Positions 1 to 13,964 of a stretch of DNA of 64,000 nucleotides are shown here, piece after piece (positions within the stretch are counted from its first letter, which is position 1; every line of letters starts with the position of its first letter). Source of the DNA: Promethearchaeota archaeon (GTDB lineage: Archaea > Asgardarchaeota > Lokiarchaeia > Sigyniarchaeales > SOKP01); NCBI GenBank assembly GCA_048940645.1, contig JBHLOI010000006.1:1-64000 (forward strand), given 5' to 3'. Position numbers and translations under genes: made by a program. Below the pieces are notes generated by a model. That model was not told where the DNA came from. It ran no database searches and saw only the letters and a program-made list of their open reading frames with translations.

Positions 1-468
1 TTTAGTAGAATTTTTCAGAAACTAAGTCCCGGAGGCTCAGCTAAAATGATATTAGATAGACCAGATAAACCATTTGAGGGTGGAATTAGCATTGAAGCAA
101 GACCTAGAGGCAAGAAAATATCAAGCTTAGAAATTCTAAGTGGAGGAGAAAAAACCTTAGTTGCTCTTTCATTCATATTTTCCATACAAGAGTTCTACCC
201 AGCTCCATTTTATATTTTAGATGAGATTGATGCAGCTCTTGATGGTCCAAATGTCCACAGAGTCTCCATGGTCCTAAAAGAGTTTTCCAAGCAAGCCCAA
301 TTTTTAGTTATAAGCCATAGAGAAGAGAACATCGTAAATGCGGACAGAATATATGGGGTATCTATGCAGCAATCGGGTATCACGGATGTATTTAGCGTTG
401 ACTTAGAGGAAGAGGCAAAAAGATTGCTTGAGCTTTCTGATGTTGAACCACAAATAGAAGAATTATAA
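1..468 (+). CDS. smc: Chromosome segregation protein SMC, C-terminal ATPase head (5'-truncated by window edge)
   Basis: Frame is open from base 1 (FSRIFQKLSPGGSAKM...). Signature LSGGEK, Walker B/D-loop YILDEIDAALD and H-loop VISH present; scpA and scpB lie downstream. Confidence 0.95.
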   Translation, partial: FSRIFQKLSPGGSAKMILDRPDKPFEGGISIEARPRGKKISSLEILSGGEKTLVALSFIFSIQEFYPAPFYILDEIDAALDGPNVHRVSMVLKEFSKQAQFLVISHREENIVNADRIYGVSMQQSGITDVFSVDLEEEAKRLLELSDVEPQIEEL

Positions 469-527
469 CTAATCGGATTATATTTGAATATTAGAATAAA
501 AAAAAAATGCCGTATAATGATTAGGTA

Positions 528-3500
528 TTAACGAGTACTCTGTATGAACATTCTTTCTTTTTTCTGTTCCTTTTCCCATTTCATGCGTTCTGAACGTAAT
601 TTAAAGAGATCTATATCCTTAAAAATCAATCCCTCCTCCTTTGCCTTCAGTTTTCTTTCAGTTCTATCTTTCTCAGGAGTGTGAATAAATGAATTTCCGA
701 ATTCTGCAATATTTGCAAAAAAACAGTACGCGTAGATTGATCTTCGGGCATCGAAATGCGCAGCATTAAAATCAGCTGTGACTGGAGTAAAGGCTGGATT
801 TAATATAATATCAACAGGGGGTTCAAAATTTTTCAATTCTACTCTTAAATCCATATCAAGAAAATCCCTACAAATTGCGATTGCTATTCTTCCGTATTCG
901 GTATTGCACACGATTGTGGTACTAGGCAAATTACTAACTTCTATCCCTTCTTTAAATCGTTCTCCTTCACCAGTACTTATAATTGCAGGGATATGTTTTT
1001 CCTGTTCCCAAAGGATCCCTTCTGGGCTATAAACCTTACTGATATTTCGTTTAGTATGTAGGTCATGGAACGATCCTGGGATGATATACATCCCATATAA
1101 TTTTGAAAAATCTGCTATTTCTTTAGCAATCTCACCATAATTAAGATCTATTGTCATTTCTGGGAAGAGTAAAATATTTACTCCCTCTTTGTGGGCATTA
1201 TCAACCATAACTTTAATCTTGGACATAAGTTCTTCAATTTTACCCTCTTTTACTGTTAGAAGACCTGAAGATTTTGTTTCAAATAGCTCTTCCACAATGT
1301 TACCCGTTTCAGAAACTCCAATTTGGGCAATTCCAATTCTGCATTCTCTTTTTTGAACTTTAGGATATTCTGTAATTAAATCCCTATAGACTAATTGATA
1401 CTTTCTCCGTTCTTTAGTTTCTAGCTGGCCTCGTCTCTCCTCATTACTGAATTGACGAGCTTCACTTAATCGAGGTGATTGGCTGCTTTCGAGGGGACAA
1501 GAAGGGGCTACTATGCCCGTGGTGCTACGGGATATTGAAGGTTCTTTTATAGTACTTAATGCTGAAATAAGAATTGATTCTTCTTTCTCAACTCTATTCA
1601 ATCGATCCTGAACTTCTTTCTCCTTATCTAGATACCCAGCTTTACCAAATAATTCTACTGCTGACTTTAAATATTGTGCGCCAATTCTTAAAAGTTTCCG
1701 TTTTCCTTGAAGATCTGTGATTTCATCAGCTTTGATTAACTGCCATGCCGCATCAAAATAAATGGAAGTCGCTTGTGCCCAGTCAGCACCACTCTCGAAT
1801 CCTCCCTTTTCATAAGAGTTAGCTGCTTTACTTAACATCTGTTTAACTTTTGGATATAATTCTTTTTTAAAGTCGATGTCAAAAGACTCATCAAATTTAC
1901 AGCCATATTCCAGAGCTTGACAAAAGGTTGAATTTCCAGACGCCAATAATTTTAATTTGGTATCCGTGAATAGATCACTAGCTCTTGCGAACAAGCTTGC
2001 TGCTTCAAAAAATCTATTTGGGTCTTCATATTCTTCAGCTAATTCCATATTTTCCCATGCTCTGCAAAGATAATAAACCGCTTCTAATTCCTCTCTTTCT
2101 CTTTTGATTTTGAATAGGAGACAAATGTCTCTAAATTGCGATGATGTGAGAGCGAATTTTTCTGCAGCTGCAATATGTTCCCCTTGCTTTCCTAAAATCC
2201 GTGCTTCTTCGAGATGTATTCTCGCAGTACAATGATTCACCCGTACTTGAGCTATTTTTTCAAATTTATTAATTCTCTCTTTGTCAAATTTTTCTCTTGA
2301 TCGCTTGTAGGATTTCATTAATGTCTTAATTGCTTCTTCAAAGATTTTCCCCGTTTTTTTAAAACTTTCTATGGCTTCTTCATGCTTTTCTTGTTTACTC
2401 AGTTGTTCTGCTTCCTCCAATGATATCCATCCAGAATAATACGATGCTTCATATCCATAGTTGGGTAAGTTTTTTAATATTTCATAAGCCTTCTCATAAT
2501 ATTCCTTGGATTGTTTGTGATTCTCACGATTATGATATGATTTAGCTTCTTCAATATAACTCCATGCGTGCACGTAATTAAATTTCTCGGTGATTCTATT
2601 CTTTAGTAGCTTATATTGTATCATTTGTAGTGACTTATTATAGGCGTTCTGAGCTTTCTTATAATTTTCAGCTGAAAGCATGTAATCACCCAAGCGATCT
2701 TCTATACGAGCAATATATTGATAACTTGCTGCTTCATAGGAAAAATAGTTCCTATCAACACTCTCTTTTATAGTGTGAAGAAAAATTTCTCTTGCTTGAT
2801 TTAAATCGGAAATATCGCTCGTTACAATGCCTAATTCTTCATATAATAATCCAATTCTCATTTGTTCTGTAAGAGCGCCTGTTCGAGATAAAATCGCAAA
2901 ATCAATTGATTTCTTTTGAGCCTCTATAGCCTTTCTAAGATGCGAGATTCTCTCTTCTTTATTTTTAGAGATATCCGCAAGAGTTTTATGAGCCTTATAA
3001 AGACTTGTATACCCTCCTGCTTGTGGAAATCCCCCTTCATATTTCAACCCGAATTGCCGTGCATTTTTTGCTTCTTGAAGCATAATTTGAGCATACTCCA
3101 ATTGTTTTAGTTTCGATTCTGCAAGAATGGCAAGTTGGGAGTAAGCTAATATCAGCCCTTGGTATAACCACGCTATAATAGGAGGGAAATTTGGTGTACT
3201 CATCGCTTCCTTTACGTATTGGAGCCCTTTTTCAGCATAGATTTTACGTTGTGCTGCAGTAAAAAAACTCCTCTGTGAAGAATTAGTATAATAAAGCGCA
3301 GGTACAACATTTCTCATAGAGCGATAAAGATTATGAGAAAGTGCATAGATCTTCCCTAATTCTGAACAGTTTTTGATATCACTAAGAATTCTCTTCTGGA
3401 GATAATTGATTCTGCCACTAAAAATTGCAAAATAATCTAGAAAAAAAATAATCACTAGCATATTACTTTTACTTTTCACTTTTCTGGCAAAATCTAAAGA

Positions 3501-4361
3501 TTTCTCTAAAAATTCTATTCCCTTAACAAGGTATTCCTCTTGTTCTCTTTCATCTTCGACGAACTGATATCCAGTGTAGCAATAGCAAACACCTGTTGCT
3601 GAATAAACTAGACTGAGGGCATAAGGATCATCTACCATATCAATAATAGCGATGCTTTTATTACATTCTTCCAAGAATTGGATTGTTTTCTCTCTCAAAT
3701 TTTCTTCTCTTTTAAAATCTTTGACTGACCATCCCATAAAATTAATAATGAGTCTCAAATTCAATGACTCAGATAAAAGCTGAATATTTCCAATGTTTTC
3801 TGAAATTTTCCAAGCTATATTAGCAGATTCACCTCCTTGTATGAAAACTTGTTCATATTCTTCTTGATTAATATTATAAGTCATGAGGAGATACGAACTT
3901 GATGCTGCACGGCACCATAATCTCGCAATACTTTCTTTATCACCCTCTTTGGAATAAATCTCACCTGATTCACTAAAAAGTTTAATCGCCTGAAGACTTG
4001 CCTTCTTACCTTCCACATCAGAAGTTGCAAGGAGCCCATTTATAAAATAAGTTTCTGCTTCACATTCAAGCTCTATAGATCTTTTTCCAAGTTGTTTAAA
4101 GAACATACTTGCCTCTTTATACGCTTTAATAGAACACTTAAGTTGTTTCAAATAATCTTCCGCAGTTTCTACCGTATCTGCGCCTCGGAAGTGAGTATAT
4201 CCAAGATTTTTATAACAAAAAGCTGCTCTTTCATCTTGATTATTATCCAAATAAAGCTTTACAACTTTCTCATATAAGGTTGCTGCTTCAATCCAATTAA
4301 ACTTTCTCTCTTCTTCCTGTGCCTTTTCAAGTAGTAACTCTTCATTTTCTACTATAGTCAT
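528..4361 (-). CDS. Large TPR/SNAP-like helical-repeat protein fused to a C-terminal carbon-nitrogen hydrolase (nitrilase) domain
   Basis: About 950 aa of A/Y/E/K-rich helical repeats, then RIGIAQ, LLFPEM (Glu), YIIPGS, QEKHIP (Lys) and GRIAIAICRDF (Cys), i.e. the E-K-C triad. Confidence 0.85.
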   Translation of the reverse strand: MTIVENEELLLEKAQEEERKFNWIEAATLYEKVVKLYLDNNQDERAAFCYKNLGYTHFRGADTVETAEDYLKQLKCSIKAYKEASMFFKQLGKRSIELECEAETYFINGLLATSDVEGKKASLQAIKLFSESGEIYSKEGDKESIARLWCRAASSSYLLMTYNINQEEYEQVFIQGGESANIAWKISENIGNIQLLSESLNLRLIINFMGWSVKDFKREENLREKTIQFLEECNKSIAIIDMVDDPYALSLVYSATGVCYCYTGYQFVEDEREQEEYLVKGIEFLEKSLDFARKVKSKSNMLVIIFFLDYFAIFSGRINYLQKRILSDIKNCSELGKIYALSHNLYRSMRNVVPALYYTNSSQRSFFTAAQRKIYAEKGLQYVKEAMSTPNFPPIIAWLYQGLILAYSQLAILAESKLKQLEYAQIMLQEAKNARQFGLKYEGGFPQAGGYTSLYKAHKTLADISKNKEERISHLRKAIEAQKKSIDFAILSRTGALTEQMRIGLLYEELGIVTSDISDLNQAREIFLHTIKESVDRNYFSYEAASYQYIARIEDRLGDYMLSAENYKKAQNAYNKSLQMIQYKLLKNRITEKFNYVHAWSYIEEAKSYHNRENHKQSKEYYEKAYEILKNLPNYGYEASYYSGWISLEEAEQLSKQEKHEEAIESFKKTGKIFEEAIKTLMKSYKRSREKFDKERINKFEKIAQVRVNHCTARIHLEEARILGKQGEHIAAAEKFALTSSQFRDICLLFKIKREREELEAVYYLCRAWENMELAEEYEDPNRFFEAASLFARASDLFTDTKLKLLASGNSTFCQALEYGCKFDESFDIDFKKELYPKVKQMLSKAANSYEKGGFESGADWAQATSIYFDAAWQLIKADEITDLQGKRKLLRIGAQYLKSAVELFGKAGYLDKEKEVQDRLNRVEKEESILISALSTIKEPSISRSTTGIVAPSCPLESSQSPRLSEARQFSNEERRGQLETKERRKYQLVYRDLITEYPKVQKRECRIGIAQIGVSETGNIVEELFETKSSGLLTVKEGKIEELMSKIKVMVDNAHKEGVNILLFPEMTIDLNYGEIAKEIADFSKLYGMYIIPGSFHDLHTKRNISKVYSPEGILWEQEKHIPAIISTGEGERFKEGIEVSNLPSTTIVCNTEYGRIAIAICRDFLDMDLRVELKNFEPPVDIILNPAFTPVTADFNAAHFDARRSIYAYCFFANIAEFGNSFIHTPEKDRTERKLKAKEEGLIFKDIDLFKLRSERMKWEKEQKKERMFIQSTR

Positions 4362-4940
4362 TTGAGATCATTGTTCGATATATTTATGTTCAGTTTCTAC
4401 CTACTTGTCTAGTATAAATTACTGTGAATGATTAATAAATATTCAGTTTAATCAAGAATTACAATAAATTGTATAAAAATATAAAAAAAGTGTAATAGAT
4501 AGAAATTAGGATCTCTCAATCTATAACTAATTCTTCTCTGGCACTTGCCAATTTCTTATGACATCGTCAATTTAAACTTCTATACATGAATATAAATTAA
4601 AATATAAGAAAATTAAAAAAAAAAAGTTACATCTCTTCTTTCTATCTGGTATTTTTTCAGTTTTAGTAATCATTTTGAGCAAGAAAGCTAAGAAATCCTA
4701 ATAACTAATTATTTTTTCACTTAAGTTTTATTGAAATCAGAAATTGAATTTACCTTTTTTTTATAATTTTTTTTCCAATGTTTTCCTATGAGACTGGAAG
4801 AATGATTCTATTGGAAGAATATTAATATTAAAATAGTTATAGTAGATATAAGAAAATAAATAAAAGTAATTAACCAAGAATATTTTCAAACCTAATTAAA
4901 TTAAATATACAGATTATTGTTAAACAATCAGTGATTTTTC

Positions 4941-5945
4941 ATGTCAAATGAAAAAAAATCAAAAAATGAGTATAATTTTAAAGATTGGACTGTAAGTCAA
5001 CTAAAAGAATTTGCTACGATAAATAATATAAAAATACCATCCAAATCTAAAAAGAATGATATAATAAAGTTGCTGAATGATGTAGTATCCCATCCTGAAT
5101 TTATAGATAGAACAAAGGAAGAAGAGTTAGATGAGGAATTAGAAGAAGAATTAATAGCGGGCGAAGAAGAAGATCCTGCTATATTACAAAAAGAAAAATT
5201 TGAGTTAAAATTTTGGCAAAAACCTCCTTTTTCTAGCTTACTAGATTTTGAGCTAGCAAAAGATTCAGATATAGCTTTCTATGATTTAGCTTCCCTAGTT
5301 GATAAGTTCTTTAGCAATATGCTTCACGAAGAATTGATCAATTATAAAATTTCTGGAATTGCACTAAAAAATTCTGCTTATTTACATCACTATAAAATAT
5401 CGAGTATTATAAAAGAAGAAGAAGAAATTCAAAAAAAAGAAGAACTTGAAAAATTCAGACAAACACATGGGAGATCAATTCCTAAAACCTTACCTCAACC
5501 CATTCAACCAAAATTGCTAGTATCTACTAAGGAAGAATTGTTTGAAGCTATGCGATCGGCAATTATAGAAACAATGCAAAATAAAGAAAAATTAAGACGA
5601 CGACGATTACGTAGAGAAGAATTAAAGGAACAAAGAATACAAATGAAATCAAAAGGTAAATTACCAAAAGAGTTATTAAAACATATTAGTGGTAGAGAAC
5701 AAAGTATAGAAGAATTACACGATTCTTGGTATAATAGAATAAAAGCAAAAACAGAATTTGATAATAAGGAAACGAGCTTTTTCGATATAACTGAAATAAT
5801 TAAAAATGAAGAAGAAAGTGATATAGATAAAAAGTTTGCGTTTGTAAAAATGTTCTTAGCATTAATGTTTTTATCTAATAATAATAGGCTAACTTTATCT
5901 CAAGATGAAGATTTTCAGGATTTTGTGATTACGCTAAAGAAATAA
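4941..5945 (+). CDS. scpA: Kleisin ScpA-like subunit with N-terminal HeH/Rho-N-like domain
   Basis: N-kleisin-like PPFSSLL..YDLASLVDKFF..SGIALKNSAYL; C-terminal winged-helix-like MFLALMFLSNNNRLTLSQDEDFQDFVI; directly upstream of scpB. Confidence 0.8.
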   Translation: MSNEKKSKNEYNFKDWTVSQLKEFATINNIKIPSKSKKNDIIKLLNDVVSHPEFIDRTKEEELDEELEEELIAGEEEDPAILQKEKFELKFWQKPPFSSLLDFELAKDSDIAFYDLASLVDKFFSNMLHEELINYKISGIALKNSAYLHHYKISSIIKEEEEIQKKEELEKFRQTHGRSIPKTLPQPIQPKLLVSTKEELFEAMRSAIIETMQNKEKLRRRRLRREELKEQRIQMKSKGKLPKELLKHISGREQSIEELHDSWYNRIKAKTEFDNKETSFFDITEIIKNEEESDIDKKFAFVKMFLALMFLSNNNRLTLSQDEDFQDFVITLKK

Positions 5946-5971
5946 TAATTTAAGCTATTAGGAGAAATATA

Positions 5972-6703
5972 ATGAAAGATAATAATCATGATAAATTTGT
6001 AAGTAATAATCAATTAAATAATGAGGAGAAATCTAACGATGCATCAATGACAAGAGATGAAAATAATGAAGAAGACCAAACATTATCTTTAACAAATGAA
6101 AAATTCAATGAAATGGGAGTTGAATCTGGATTACAACAGGAAGAACGCCCTCAAGAATCAGAATTTGCCGTAAAAATTGCATTAACTGACCTAAATCGAA
6201 ATTTAATTGAAGGAGCACTTTATGCTTCGGGAAGACCATTAGATATTGAAGAATTATCTACTAAATTAGAGCTTCCAAAAAAAGAAGTCGAGAAATTGGT
6301 CAATGAACTGGCATTTAACTATTTAGAACGCTCAAGTGCTCTTATAATTGCTCAGGTCGGTGAAAGGTTTCAAATGCAATTAAGACCAGAATACACAGAA
6401 CGAGTATCAAAATTTGCTAAAGGGGGTGGTATTTCAGAAGCTAATTTAAGAACCTTGACCGTAATTGCATTAAAACAACCAATTTTAAAATCAACTGTTG
6501 TAAAAATAAGGGGAAGTGGCGCTTATGAGCATGTTAAATATCTTTTAGATAATGATCTCATATCTGCTGTAAAGAAAGGAAGAACTCATGAATTAACAAC
6601 AACTGATAAATATGCTGATATGTTTGGCCTGCCTAAAAGTAAGGAAGAGCTTAAAAGAATGATGATCACACAGTTAGGAATCAAAGAAAATAATAAAGAA
6701 TAA
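5972..6703 (+). CDS. scpB: SMC-Scp complex subunit ScpB (kite)
   Basis: LIEGALYASGRPL, LRTLTVIALKQPI, IRGSGAYEHVKYL and TTDKYADMFGL motifs; acidic N-terminal extension. Confidence 0.93.
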   Translation: MKDNNHDKFVSNNQLNNEEKSNDASMTRDENNEEDQTLSLTNEKFNEMGVESGLQQEERPQESEFAVKIALTDLNRNLIEGALYASGRPLDIEELSTKLELPKKEVEKLVNELAFNYLERSSALIIAQVGERFQMQLRPEYTERVSKFAKGGGISEANLRTLTVIALKQPILKSTVVKIRGSGAYEHVKYLLDNDLISAVKKGRTHELTTTDKYADMFGLPKSKEELKRMMITQLGIKENNKE

Positions 6704-13031: not shown

Positions 13032-13964
13032 TTAATTCATAATTAGTACTTCGTTTATCTCTCCTCTTTTAGAAGAAATAGAATTAATAGCTCTTTTGGC
13101 TTTTAAAGTAATAATCCTGTAATTTTTATATAAATCCAATATAAAATCACAATAAGAATTACTTAATAAAATTTGGCATCCTCTTCCATCCAATTCTTTA
13201 AAGACTTCATATAATTTTATTTGGGATTCTTGTCCAAAATCTTGTTCAGTATAACTTGTAAACAAGGCTGTATCTGAAAGAGGATAATAAGGTGGATCTA
13301 AATAAATAAAATCATCTTTCTCAGCATAATTTAGACATAATTCAAAAGAACCATGAATAATTTTAATATTTGGTTTTAAAACTTTATTTACGGCTTTTAA
13401 ATTTTCTTTGTCACAGATATTTGGGTTTTTATGCCTTCCAAATGGTACGTTAAAAAAGCCTTTGCTATTAACTCTGTATAAACCATTATATCCCGCCTTG
13501 TTCAGAAAAATAGTTCTTGAAGCTTTCTCAATATCAGTTATATTCTTAAAAGTTTGAGGATTACGATCCATAGCGCGAATTTTATAATAGTATTCTTGTT
13601 TATATTTATGTTTTTCTAAAGATATTATTAAACTCTCGACCTCTTCTTTTATAACTCTATAACAATTGATTAATTCTAGATTATTATCTATTAAAATAGC
13701 ATTTGTTGGCAGTAAATAAAAAAATAGTGCTCCTCCACCCACAAATGGCTCGATATATTTATTATAATTAGGGGGAATAAATTTATCTAATTGGGAAATT
13801 AATTGTCTTTTTCCACCTGCCCATTTTAAGAAAGGATGAGGTGTCCCAACGATTGCTTTTTTTTTTTTATTTTCATTTCTTTTGGATGTTATAAATAAAT
13901 CCAATTGATTTTCTAATTCAAAGTATCGAATTATTGATTTCTGGTAATGATTTTTCTCGTGCAA
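13032..13964 (-). CDS. Dam-family (D12 class) N6-adenine DNA methyltransferase
   Basis: FLKWAGGK, EPFVGGGA, YNGLYRVNSKGFFNVPFG and YLDPPY motifs; the true start may be downstream of the called GTG. Confidence 0.93.
   Translation of the reverse strand: MHEKNHYQKSIIRYFELENQLDLFITSKRNENKKKKAIVGTPHPFLKWAGGKRQLISQLDKFIPPNYNKYIEPFVGGGALFFYLLPTNAILIDNNLELINCYRVIKEEVESLIISLEKHKYKQEYYYKIRAMDRNPQTFKNITDIEKASRTIFLNKAGYNGLYRVNSKGFFNVPFGRHKNPNICDKENLKAVNKVLKPNIKIIHGSFELCLNYAEKDDFIYLDPPYYPLSDTALFTSYTEQDFGQESQIKLYEVFKELDGRGCQILLSNSYCDFILDLYKNYRIITLKAKRAINSISSKRGEINEVLIMN

Follow-up and report, generated by a model that had tools for sequence, protein, structure and literature searches.

A TPR-like solenoid joined to a nitrilase domain in Asgard archaea: a candidate sensor-effector protein

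We analysed a 64,000-nucleotide stretch of DNA from a Promethearchaeota archaeon (assembly GCA_048940645.1, contig JBHLOI010000006.1, positions 1 to 64,000 of the forward strand), hereafter called the window. Its minus strand carries, at 528-4361, a single uninterrupted open reading frame of 1277 amino acids plus stop, which consists of a TPR-like solenoid (residues 1-937), a disordered linker with a conserved motif (residues 941-956) and a nitrilase-fold domain (residues ~1001-1277). We judge the chances to be about evenly balanced that the product of this gene is a sensor-effector, complete in one protein, of a conflict system, probably an antiviral one, which manages without an NTPase and belongs to an Asgard-wide family. 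The reading is based on the swapping of effectors behind the solenoid, a reverse swap in which the nitrilase sits on another scaffold, nitrilase scores of the defence type, an accessory distribution, a gradient of variability along the protein, and a predicted homodimer of the nitrilase domain. The features of the gene and of the DNA in front of it are as follows:

528-4361, minus strand: whole gene; one open frame, 1277 amino acids plus stop
3042-4361, minus strand: residues 1-440, most variable part of the solenoid (column entropy) and proposed specificity region; hairpins with a predicted local distance difference test score (pLDDT) >90
2262-3041, minus strand: residues 441-700, mid-solenoid of intermediate conservation, with the sole Pfam TPR matches of the protein (residues 601-670)
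1551-2261, minus strand: residues 701-937, conserved C-terminal helical module of the solenoid (pairwise identity 0.69)
1362-1550, minus strand: residues 938-1000, linker, disordered in the model; motif PSISRSTTGIVAPSCP at residues 941-956 (nt 1494-1541)
531-1361, minus strand: residues 1001-1277, nitrilase-superfamily domain, assigned from Pfam, structure prediction with Foldseek, catalytic residues and PADLOC
1158-1160, 996-998, 948-950 and 870-872, minus strand: catalytic E1068, K1122, E1138 and C1164, respectively
531-548, minus strand: invariant C-terminal tail FIQSTR, end of the nitrilase domain
4412-4438, minus strand: conserved upstream element TTATTAATCATTCACAGTAATTTATAC, 51-77 nt before the start codon

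Exchange of modules and distribution of the family

A search with the solenoid alone against 1.84 billion cluster representatives returned 535 relatives at an expectation value (E) <1e-3. In full-length relatives the solenoid ends at residues ~940-975 and is followed by a tail of 100-440 residues. We tabulated 116 such tails. Twenty-seven of them are β-sandwiches resembling DUF11, BatD or TRAP-beta, and a KaiC-like ATPase lies behind the sandwich in 11 of the 116. CN_hydrolase tails number eight, TIR_2 matches seven and ThsB_TIR matches six; there are also two Metallophos tails, one DUF835 tail and one AAA tail, and several more small groups that match no family. A first-pass annotation, made by a model from the sequence of the window, had suggested a scaffold family with swappable C-terminal effectors, and this range of tails bears out the swapping of modules.

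The relative P0038 illustrates the exchange: its solenoid is 73% identical to that of the window protein and its linker motif is retained, and the protein ends in a TIR_2 domain (E 5e-14). The P0038 gene is located amid ordinary genes on a 39-kb contig. When compared with the PADLOC models of defence proteins, the TIR tails match bSEFIR, TIR-NLR and ThsB, and the Metallophos tails match the 'Effector endonuclease' model as well as the candidate-system models PDC-S10 and PDC-S60. The reverse swap also occurs. In other Asgard families, proteins of 840-930 amino acids carry the same nitrilase (57-64% identity, with the FIQSTR end) on an unrelated, TPR_12-rich and MalT-like array of ~600 residues. 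TIR, RecA/KaiC-like and nitrilase domains all require self-assembly for activity, and this shared dependence of the partner domains would fit a scaffold that controls assembly.

The linker takes part in this modularity. A serine- and proline-rich linker had been noted in the first-pass annotation, and the stretch in question, PSISRSTTGIVAPSCPLESSQSPRLS, is present at residues 941-966. It is not a loose spacer, as its motif ranks with the better conserved stretches of the window protein: in an alignment of 112 full-length relatives, which is the basis of all entropies and mean pairwise identities given here, the column entropy of residues 921-960 is 0.77 bits. The linker consensus, PSISxSTxGIxAP, is retained in relatives of 22-35% identity and in relatives with TIR, Metallophos and β-sandwich tails.

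The family is large and almost entirely of Asgard origin by label. More than 700 database proteins match the window protein. The best 120 are mostly 1260-1290 amino acids long and 51-95% identical to it over 99-100% of the length; they stem from JGI, ENA, NCBI and Logan assemblies that are independent of one another and bear the labels Promethearchaeota (Loki), Thor-, Hermod- and Hodarchaeota. Scanning one genome per GTDB species yielded 241 loci with the nitrilase module. Among the 79 of these that were listed, every locus with a phylum-level label is Asgard except those in two oddly named bins, and seven are labelled 'uncultured archaeon'. The two bins are a Nanopelagicaceae bacterium (L039, DATKTW010000007.1, 76% identity) and a Pacearchaeota archaeon (L091, JAFCGI010000032.1, 67% identity); mis-binning is a likelier source of these loci than transfer.

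The genome that contains the window (3.83 Mb in 126 contigs, 89.6% complete) has three paralogues: the window gene and a tandem pair on contig 60, which shares 52% overall identity with it. Several other genomes contain arrays of two or three paralogues that are ~48-50% identical. Of 301 Asgard genomes, 105 have a family match; within the genus the figure is 16 of 27. Both the nitrilase module and the conserved scaffold module are missing from five congeners of 98-100% completeness, as judged with profiles that are positive in the genome of the window. An invariant, single-copy and universal fusion, which the first-pass annotation had named as grounds for abandoning its proposal, is thus not what we observe: the tails vary, there are three paralogues in one genome, and five complete congeners are negative.

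Fold and conservation of the solenoid

Residues 1-965 were modelled with AlphaFold2 from an alignment of 45 sequences (mean pLDDT 90; predicted template modelling score, pTM, 0.81). The model comprises 37 helices in a continuous stack of hairpins that ends at residue 937; residues 938-965 are unplaced (pLDDT 24-31). Foldseek searches with this model returned only long TPR superhelices, namely those of Ctr9, Ski3, IFT-A subunits and separase. By model and matches alike, residues 1-937 are a tandem helix-turn-helix superhelix of the TPR/SNAP-like α-solenoid type, and the ~950 residues of helical repeats noted at first pass form one unbroken α-solenoid. The best structural matches, Ctr9, Ski3 and IFT-A (Foldseek E 1e-10 to 1e-8), are long eukaryotic superhelices of hairpins that hold other proteins. 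This likeness is generic, with template modelling (TM) scores of 0.2-0.35 and sequence identities of 10-14%, and is no evidence of common descent or shared partners. At the sequence level, Pfam TPR_12 scores below its threshold on the window protein (25.3 bits, cut-off 30.1). SNAP or MIT families are seen in relatives, with SNAP reaching 27.1 bits in P0010 (cut-off 25). PADLOC, Pfam and NCBIfam contain nothing specific to the solenoid itself.

Conservation rises along the protein. Column entropy is 1.4-2.4 bits over residues 1-440, about 1.2-1.4 bits over residues 441-720, and mostly 0.7-0.9 bits over residues 721-960, with values of up to 1.2 bits at 881-920. In the nitrilase domain it is 0.2-1.1 bits overall and 0.2-0.5 bits past the catalytic cysteine. 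Mean pairwise identity follows the same course, being 0.50 for residues 1-700, 0.69 for residues 701-925, 0.67 for the linker and 0.76 for the nitrilase domain. A fast-changing front and a conserved output are what one would expect of a receptor under diversifying pressure.

Some positions of the C-terminal solenoid module, among them R707, C711, W769 and C814, are near-invariant even in relatives of 22-25% identity. The module also occurs outside the full-length proteins. P0402, a protein of 409 amino acids encoded in the same genome (contig 11; L025:5405-6634, plus strand), combines a P-loop domain with a 206-residue counterpart of solenoid residues 717-922 (47% identity, E 5e-57). The P-loop domain has no Pfam match; its motifs, GEKGVGKST and NFQD, make it look like a small GTPase. 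Frames of ~343 amino acids with the same solenoid module are present in four congeners (G204, G109, G240 and G132).

The nitrilase domain and its comparison with defence systems

The nitrilase domain is real but divergent: with Pfam CN_hydrolase (cut-off 23.2 bits), the whole protein reaches 22.6 bits and the isolated tail 25.9 bits. The AlphaFold2 model of the domain (pLDDT 69, pTM 0.78) matches β-ureidopropionase (PDB entry 2vhh, E 2e-12) and Nit2 (2w1v, E 3e-12) in Foldseek. The probability is 1.00 and the TM score ~0.6 for 2vhh, 2w1v, 1j31 and 6ypa, archaeal amidases being among the matches. The model and the Pfam match agree on the αββα sandwich of the nitrilase (C-N hydrolase) superfamily, and the position that the first-pass annotation had given for the domain, about nt 528-1345, was accurate to within a few codons. 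Glu1068 (in FPE), Lys1122 (EKH), Glu1138 and Cys1164 (ICRD) are invariant across 20 homologues, which bears out the intact Glu/Lys/Cys triad reported at first pass. In the same 20 homologues the stretch around the catalytic cysteine (ICRDFLDMDLRVELKN) and the final six residues, FIQSTR, are likewise invariant. A profile search against solved structures aligned the cysteine and lysine regions with those of Nit2 and β-ureidopropionase.

Structure prediction gave a homodimer of the nitrilase domain through residues 1168-1178 and 1196-1209, which are its least variable stretch. The interface score ipSAE is 0.61, compared with 0.00 for the best control; contact agreement between runs is at least 69% and the pLDDT of the partners at least 86. 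For calibration, 20 of 30 proteins solved as one-chain pairs reach the ipSAE mark, as does 1 of 23 solved as single chains. The pass may be due to the likeness of the domain to the many solved nitrilase dimers, not to binding by this particular copy.

Among the PADLOC models, the tail alone matches CARF_m7--CARF_nitrilase best (43 bits; up to E 3e-18 among relatives), followed by RTasNitrilase (42 bits) and RT_UG5-nitrilase (39 bits), and seven of the eight nitrilase tails also match the Drt1a model. The three paralogues of the genome score 55, 42 and 39 bits on PADLOC RTasNitrilase and 43, 34 and 25 bits on Pfam CN_hydrolase. The two ordinary CN hydrolases of the same genome (264 and 276 amino acids) behave in the opposite way: Pfam gives them 142 and 83 bits, and on the PADLOC nitrilase models they score nothing and 18.6 bits, respectively. 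CN hydrolases are found in 12 of 14 control genomes, and the RTasNitrilase model is matched in one of the 14, that of Methanosarcina acetivorans. Taken with their controls, these profile scores, which are not a tree, support a position of the domain nearer the defence-associated models than the generic family. The scores for the Asgard nitrilase are also consistent with the published separation of defence-associated nitrilases from metabolic ones as a distinct clade (PMC9226505). The comparison with anti-phage nitrilase fusions such as DRT1/UG1, made in the first-pass annotation, gains some support from these scores.

DRT1 (UG1) and UG5 belong to the class 3 UG/Abi defence reverse transcriptases and have a nitrilase that is either C-terminal or associated (PDB entry 9yfd; PMC13275509, PMC9226505). 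In DRT1 the nitrilase is the effector and is active only as an oligomer, in which the active site is closed by conserved C-terminal residues of the neighbouring protomer; its substrate is still unknown (PMC13275509). The Asgard protein resembles these systems in being a multidomain protein of ~1200-1300 amino acids with helical repeats followed by a nitrilase fold in the last ~280 residues, and in matching RT_UG5-nitrilase, RTasNitrilase and Drt1a. Its domain aligns weakly with residues 1114-1221 of 9yfd (E 0.012). Further likenesses to DRT1 are the predicted self-pairing and a conserved extreme C-terminus, FIQSTR here and an active-site lid in DRT1. No DRT1 chain was among the Foldseek matches listed for the nitrilase model (PDB to 8 April 2026). 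Unlike DRT1 and UG5, the Asgard protein has no reverse transcriptase domain, and so lacks the DNA-adduct switch: Pfam finds no RVT family in the window protein, and the PADLOC matches to RT-nitrilase models span the nitrilase part only (for example, positions 628-879 of 907). It differs also in that its helical part is a 940-residue TPR-like solenoid, and in that its carriers are archaeal and restricted to Asgard lineages. A word-based homologue search with the profile of the nitrilase domain likewise recovered Asgard fragments only.

The CARF-nitrilase represented by CARF_m7--CARF_nitrilase is a predicted ancillary effector of type III CRISPR-Cas. Its fusion of a sensor domain to a nitrilase output follows the logic that we propose for the Asgard protein. 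The Asgard protein has no CARF domain, and hence no cyclic-oligoadenylate input (Pfam finds no CARF family in the window protein, and the match covers positions 215-400 of the 457-position model, the nitrilase part), and no CRISPR neighbourhood was seen.

A third comparison is with the Avs, STAND and TIR-NLR sensors, in which a repeat array is likewise joined to interchangeable effectors that include TIR, paralogues are tandem and divergent, and the repeats evolve faster than the effector. The analogy with Avs-type sensors drawn in the first-pass annotation holds for the repeat array with swappable effectors and fails for the P-loop NTPase module (NACHT/NB-ARC-like) that STAND/Avs-type sensors have between effector and repeats and that the Asgard protein lacks: a motif search found no Walker A motif in the window protein, Pfam, NCBIfam and PADLOC found no NTPase family, and the model consists of helical hairpins throughout. 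PADLOC finds nothing in the solenoid, and the domain order is reversed relative to Avs and STAND proteins, with the effector C-terminal to the repeats. Innate immunity in bacteria, plants and animals is built on modular proteins that pair a repeat sensor with an effector. In our reading the Asgard protein is of this already known kind, here without an NTPase and with a nitrilase output. To our knowledge, Asgard archaea, which are the nearest known relatives of eukaryotes, have yielded almost no characterised example. Full-text literature searches, which included two Asgard defensome papers, turned up no account of a TPR-nitrilase or this scaffold family.

Proposed mechanism, rival explanations and genomic context

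The trigger, the switch, the substrate and the role in defence that we infer for the protein would combine as follows. The solenoid, chiefly its fast-diverging first ~440 residues, would bind a macromolecular trigger such as a viral protein, and binding would alter the assembly state of the protein. The C-terminal nitrilase domains would then gather in an active arrangement, pairing via their least variable surface, with the FIQSTR tail at the end. The active nitrilase would attack an essential protein or small molecule by hydrolysing one of its amide or nitrile bonds, which would arrest either the cell or the invader. If a sensor-effector of this kind is indeed what the gene encodes, it represents an abundant immune-receptor design without an NTPase switch (241 loci, often several per genome), and the Asgard enzyme would provide a second, independent handle on the targets of defence nitrilases. 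We regard as a long shot a more far-reaching version, in which the family would form a new class of innate-immune receptors in archaea, without an NTPase switch: a viral protein would bind the TPR solenoid directly, the helical module and the linker motif would release or assemble a plug-in effector, and the module would also be read by small-GTPase-like proteins. Immune sensing would then be tied to GTPase signalling in the closest archaeal relatives of eukaryotes.

Several observations weigh against a role in conflict. Neither an NTPase nor another known switch is present, and so the activation step is without support from precedent. The affinity of the nitrilase to defence systems is a matter of profile scores, not of a tree, and in the profile search against solved structures DRT1 (9yfd, E 0.012) ranks below Nit2 and β-ureidopropionase (E ~1e-4). 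The commonest tail in distant relatives of the scaffold is the DUF11-like β-sandwich, often followed by the KaiC-like ATPase, and such tails resemble signalling modules more than killing ones. In P0402 the conserved scaffold module is joined to a small-GTPase-like P-loop domain. A search of IMG/VR viral contigs for the nitrilase module gave no relative. Finally, the six neighbourhoods that we inspected contain mostly housekeeping and metabolic genes, with no consistent defence genes or recognisable defence islands, and a toxin-antitoxin pair is next door in just one of the six. This pair, a nucleotidyltransferase (Polbeta) and a HepT-like protein, is encoded immediately downstream of the 75%-identical relative P0015 (L007:14285-15113).

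It is because of this counter-evidence (no NTPase, no defence islands, no viral copies, and partners that resemble signalling proteins) that we keep alive a role in regulation or as a protein amidase, which we consider rather unlikely. The protein would then be a cellular regulatory or protein-modifying machine whose solenoid recruits a host protein and whose nitrilase deamidates it or cleaves an amide; or it would be part of GTPase- or KaiC-linked signalling. Nta1, the N-terminal amidase of the N-degron pathway, is a member of the nitrilase superfamily, which speaks for such a role. So do the fusion of the scaffold module to a small-GTPase-like P-loop domain, the β-sandwich with KaiC-like, AAA or DUF835 tails of distant scaffold relatives, the very strong conservation of the enzyme and the mostly housekeeping nature of the neighbouring genes. 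The tandem paralogues on contig 60 are, in addition, divergent from an operon that encodes an E2 (UQ_con), an E1 (ThiF) and a JAB protein together with an unassigned protein of 294 amino acids (L004:6433-9353, minus strand), and the same adjacency is found in the congener G121. However, there is no E1, E2 or JAB within 9-12 kb of the family genes in G192 and G049, which belong to another genus of the same family. As the adjacency is not conserved past the genus, we keep the link to E1, E2 and JAB as a weak rival only. The complete congeners without the family would be odd if it were a core regulatory enzyme, and the TIR, bSEFIR and Metallophos partners and the PADLOC affinity of the nitrilase point to conflict systems. 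Were the regulatory explanation correct, the protein would be a new protein-directed amidase tied to the ubiquitin or GTPase biology of Asgard archaea.

A further rival is a plain metabolic enzyme, nitrilase or amidase, to which a large scaffold was added for localisation or complex assembly. It would account for the intact fold and catalytic tetrad, and for the best matches among solved structures being metabolic enzymes (β-ureidopropionase, Nit2 and carbamoylases). We find this very improbable, given that the genome already has two canonical CN hydrolases with the opposite profile behaviour, that the same scaffold carries TIR or a phosphoesterase instead, that no metabolic neighbours are conserved, and that the distribution within the genus is patchy. 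The first-pass annotation had also allowed for a chimera. An artefact of this kind, in which faulty assembly or gene calling joined a TPR gene to a nitrilase gene, is refuted by the uninterrupted frame, more than 100 independently assembled full-length proteins of 1260-1290 amino acids, three copies in one genome and 241 loci.

In the window, the gene is antisense to its surroundings, with the 3' end of smc on one side and a putative scpA-scpB pair on the other. The gap between smc and scpAB is a variable slot (window 1-6703; congener L022, G113:C49:15000-26000): it holds the 1277-amino-acid gene here and an antisense gene of the metallo-β-lactamase fold (277 amino acids) in the congener. The closest orthologues, at 81% and 75% identity, sit in unrelated neighbourhoods. 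A functional link to smc-scpAB was considered and dropped on account of these orthologues and of the different occupant of the slot in the congener. The N-terminus of the putative ScpA carries a HeH/Ish1-like motif, and the protein does not match the ScpA family of Pfam at E ≤0.001. About 9 kb away from the gene, at 13032-13964 on the minus strand, the window also contains an open reading frame for a putative Dam-like DNA methyltransferase, judged from its sequence only and with no evident link to the gene.

The family genes share a conserved element in front of the coding region. Its core, TTATTAATYATTYWNAR, is located 57-78 nt upstream of the start codon in every family gene examined, including the TIR-ended one, and at no other place in 31 loci; ~40 more conserved bases follow the core. 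The element is likely a promoter or leader that travels with the gene, and may combine promoter and leader or act as an operator. Other copies are at L004:9765-9781, L004:13729-13745, L006:9923-9939 and L020:929-945, and also in L027, L028 and L029.

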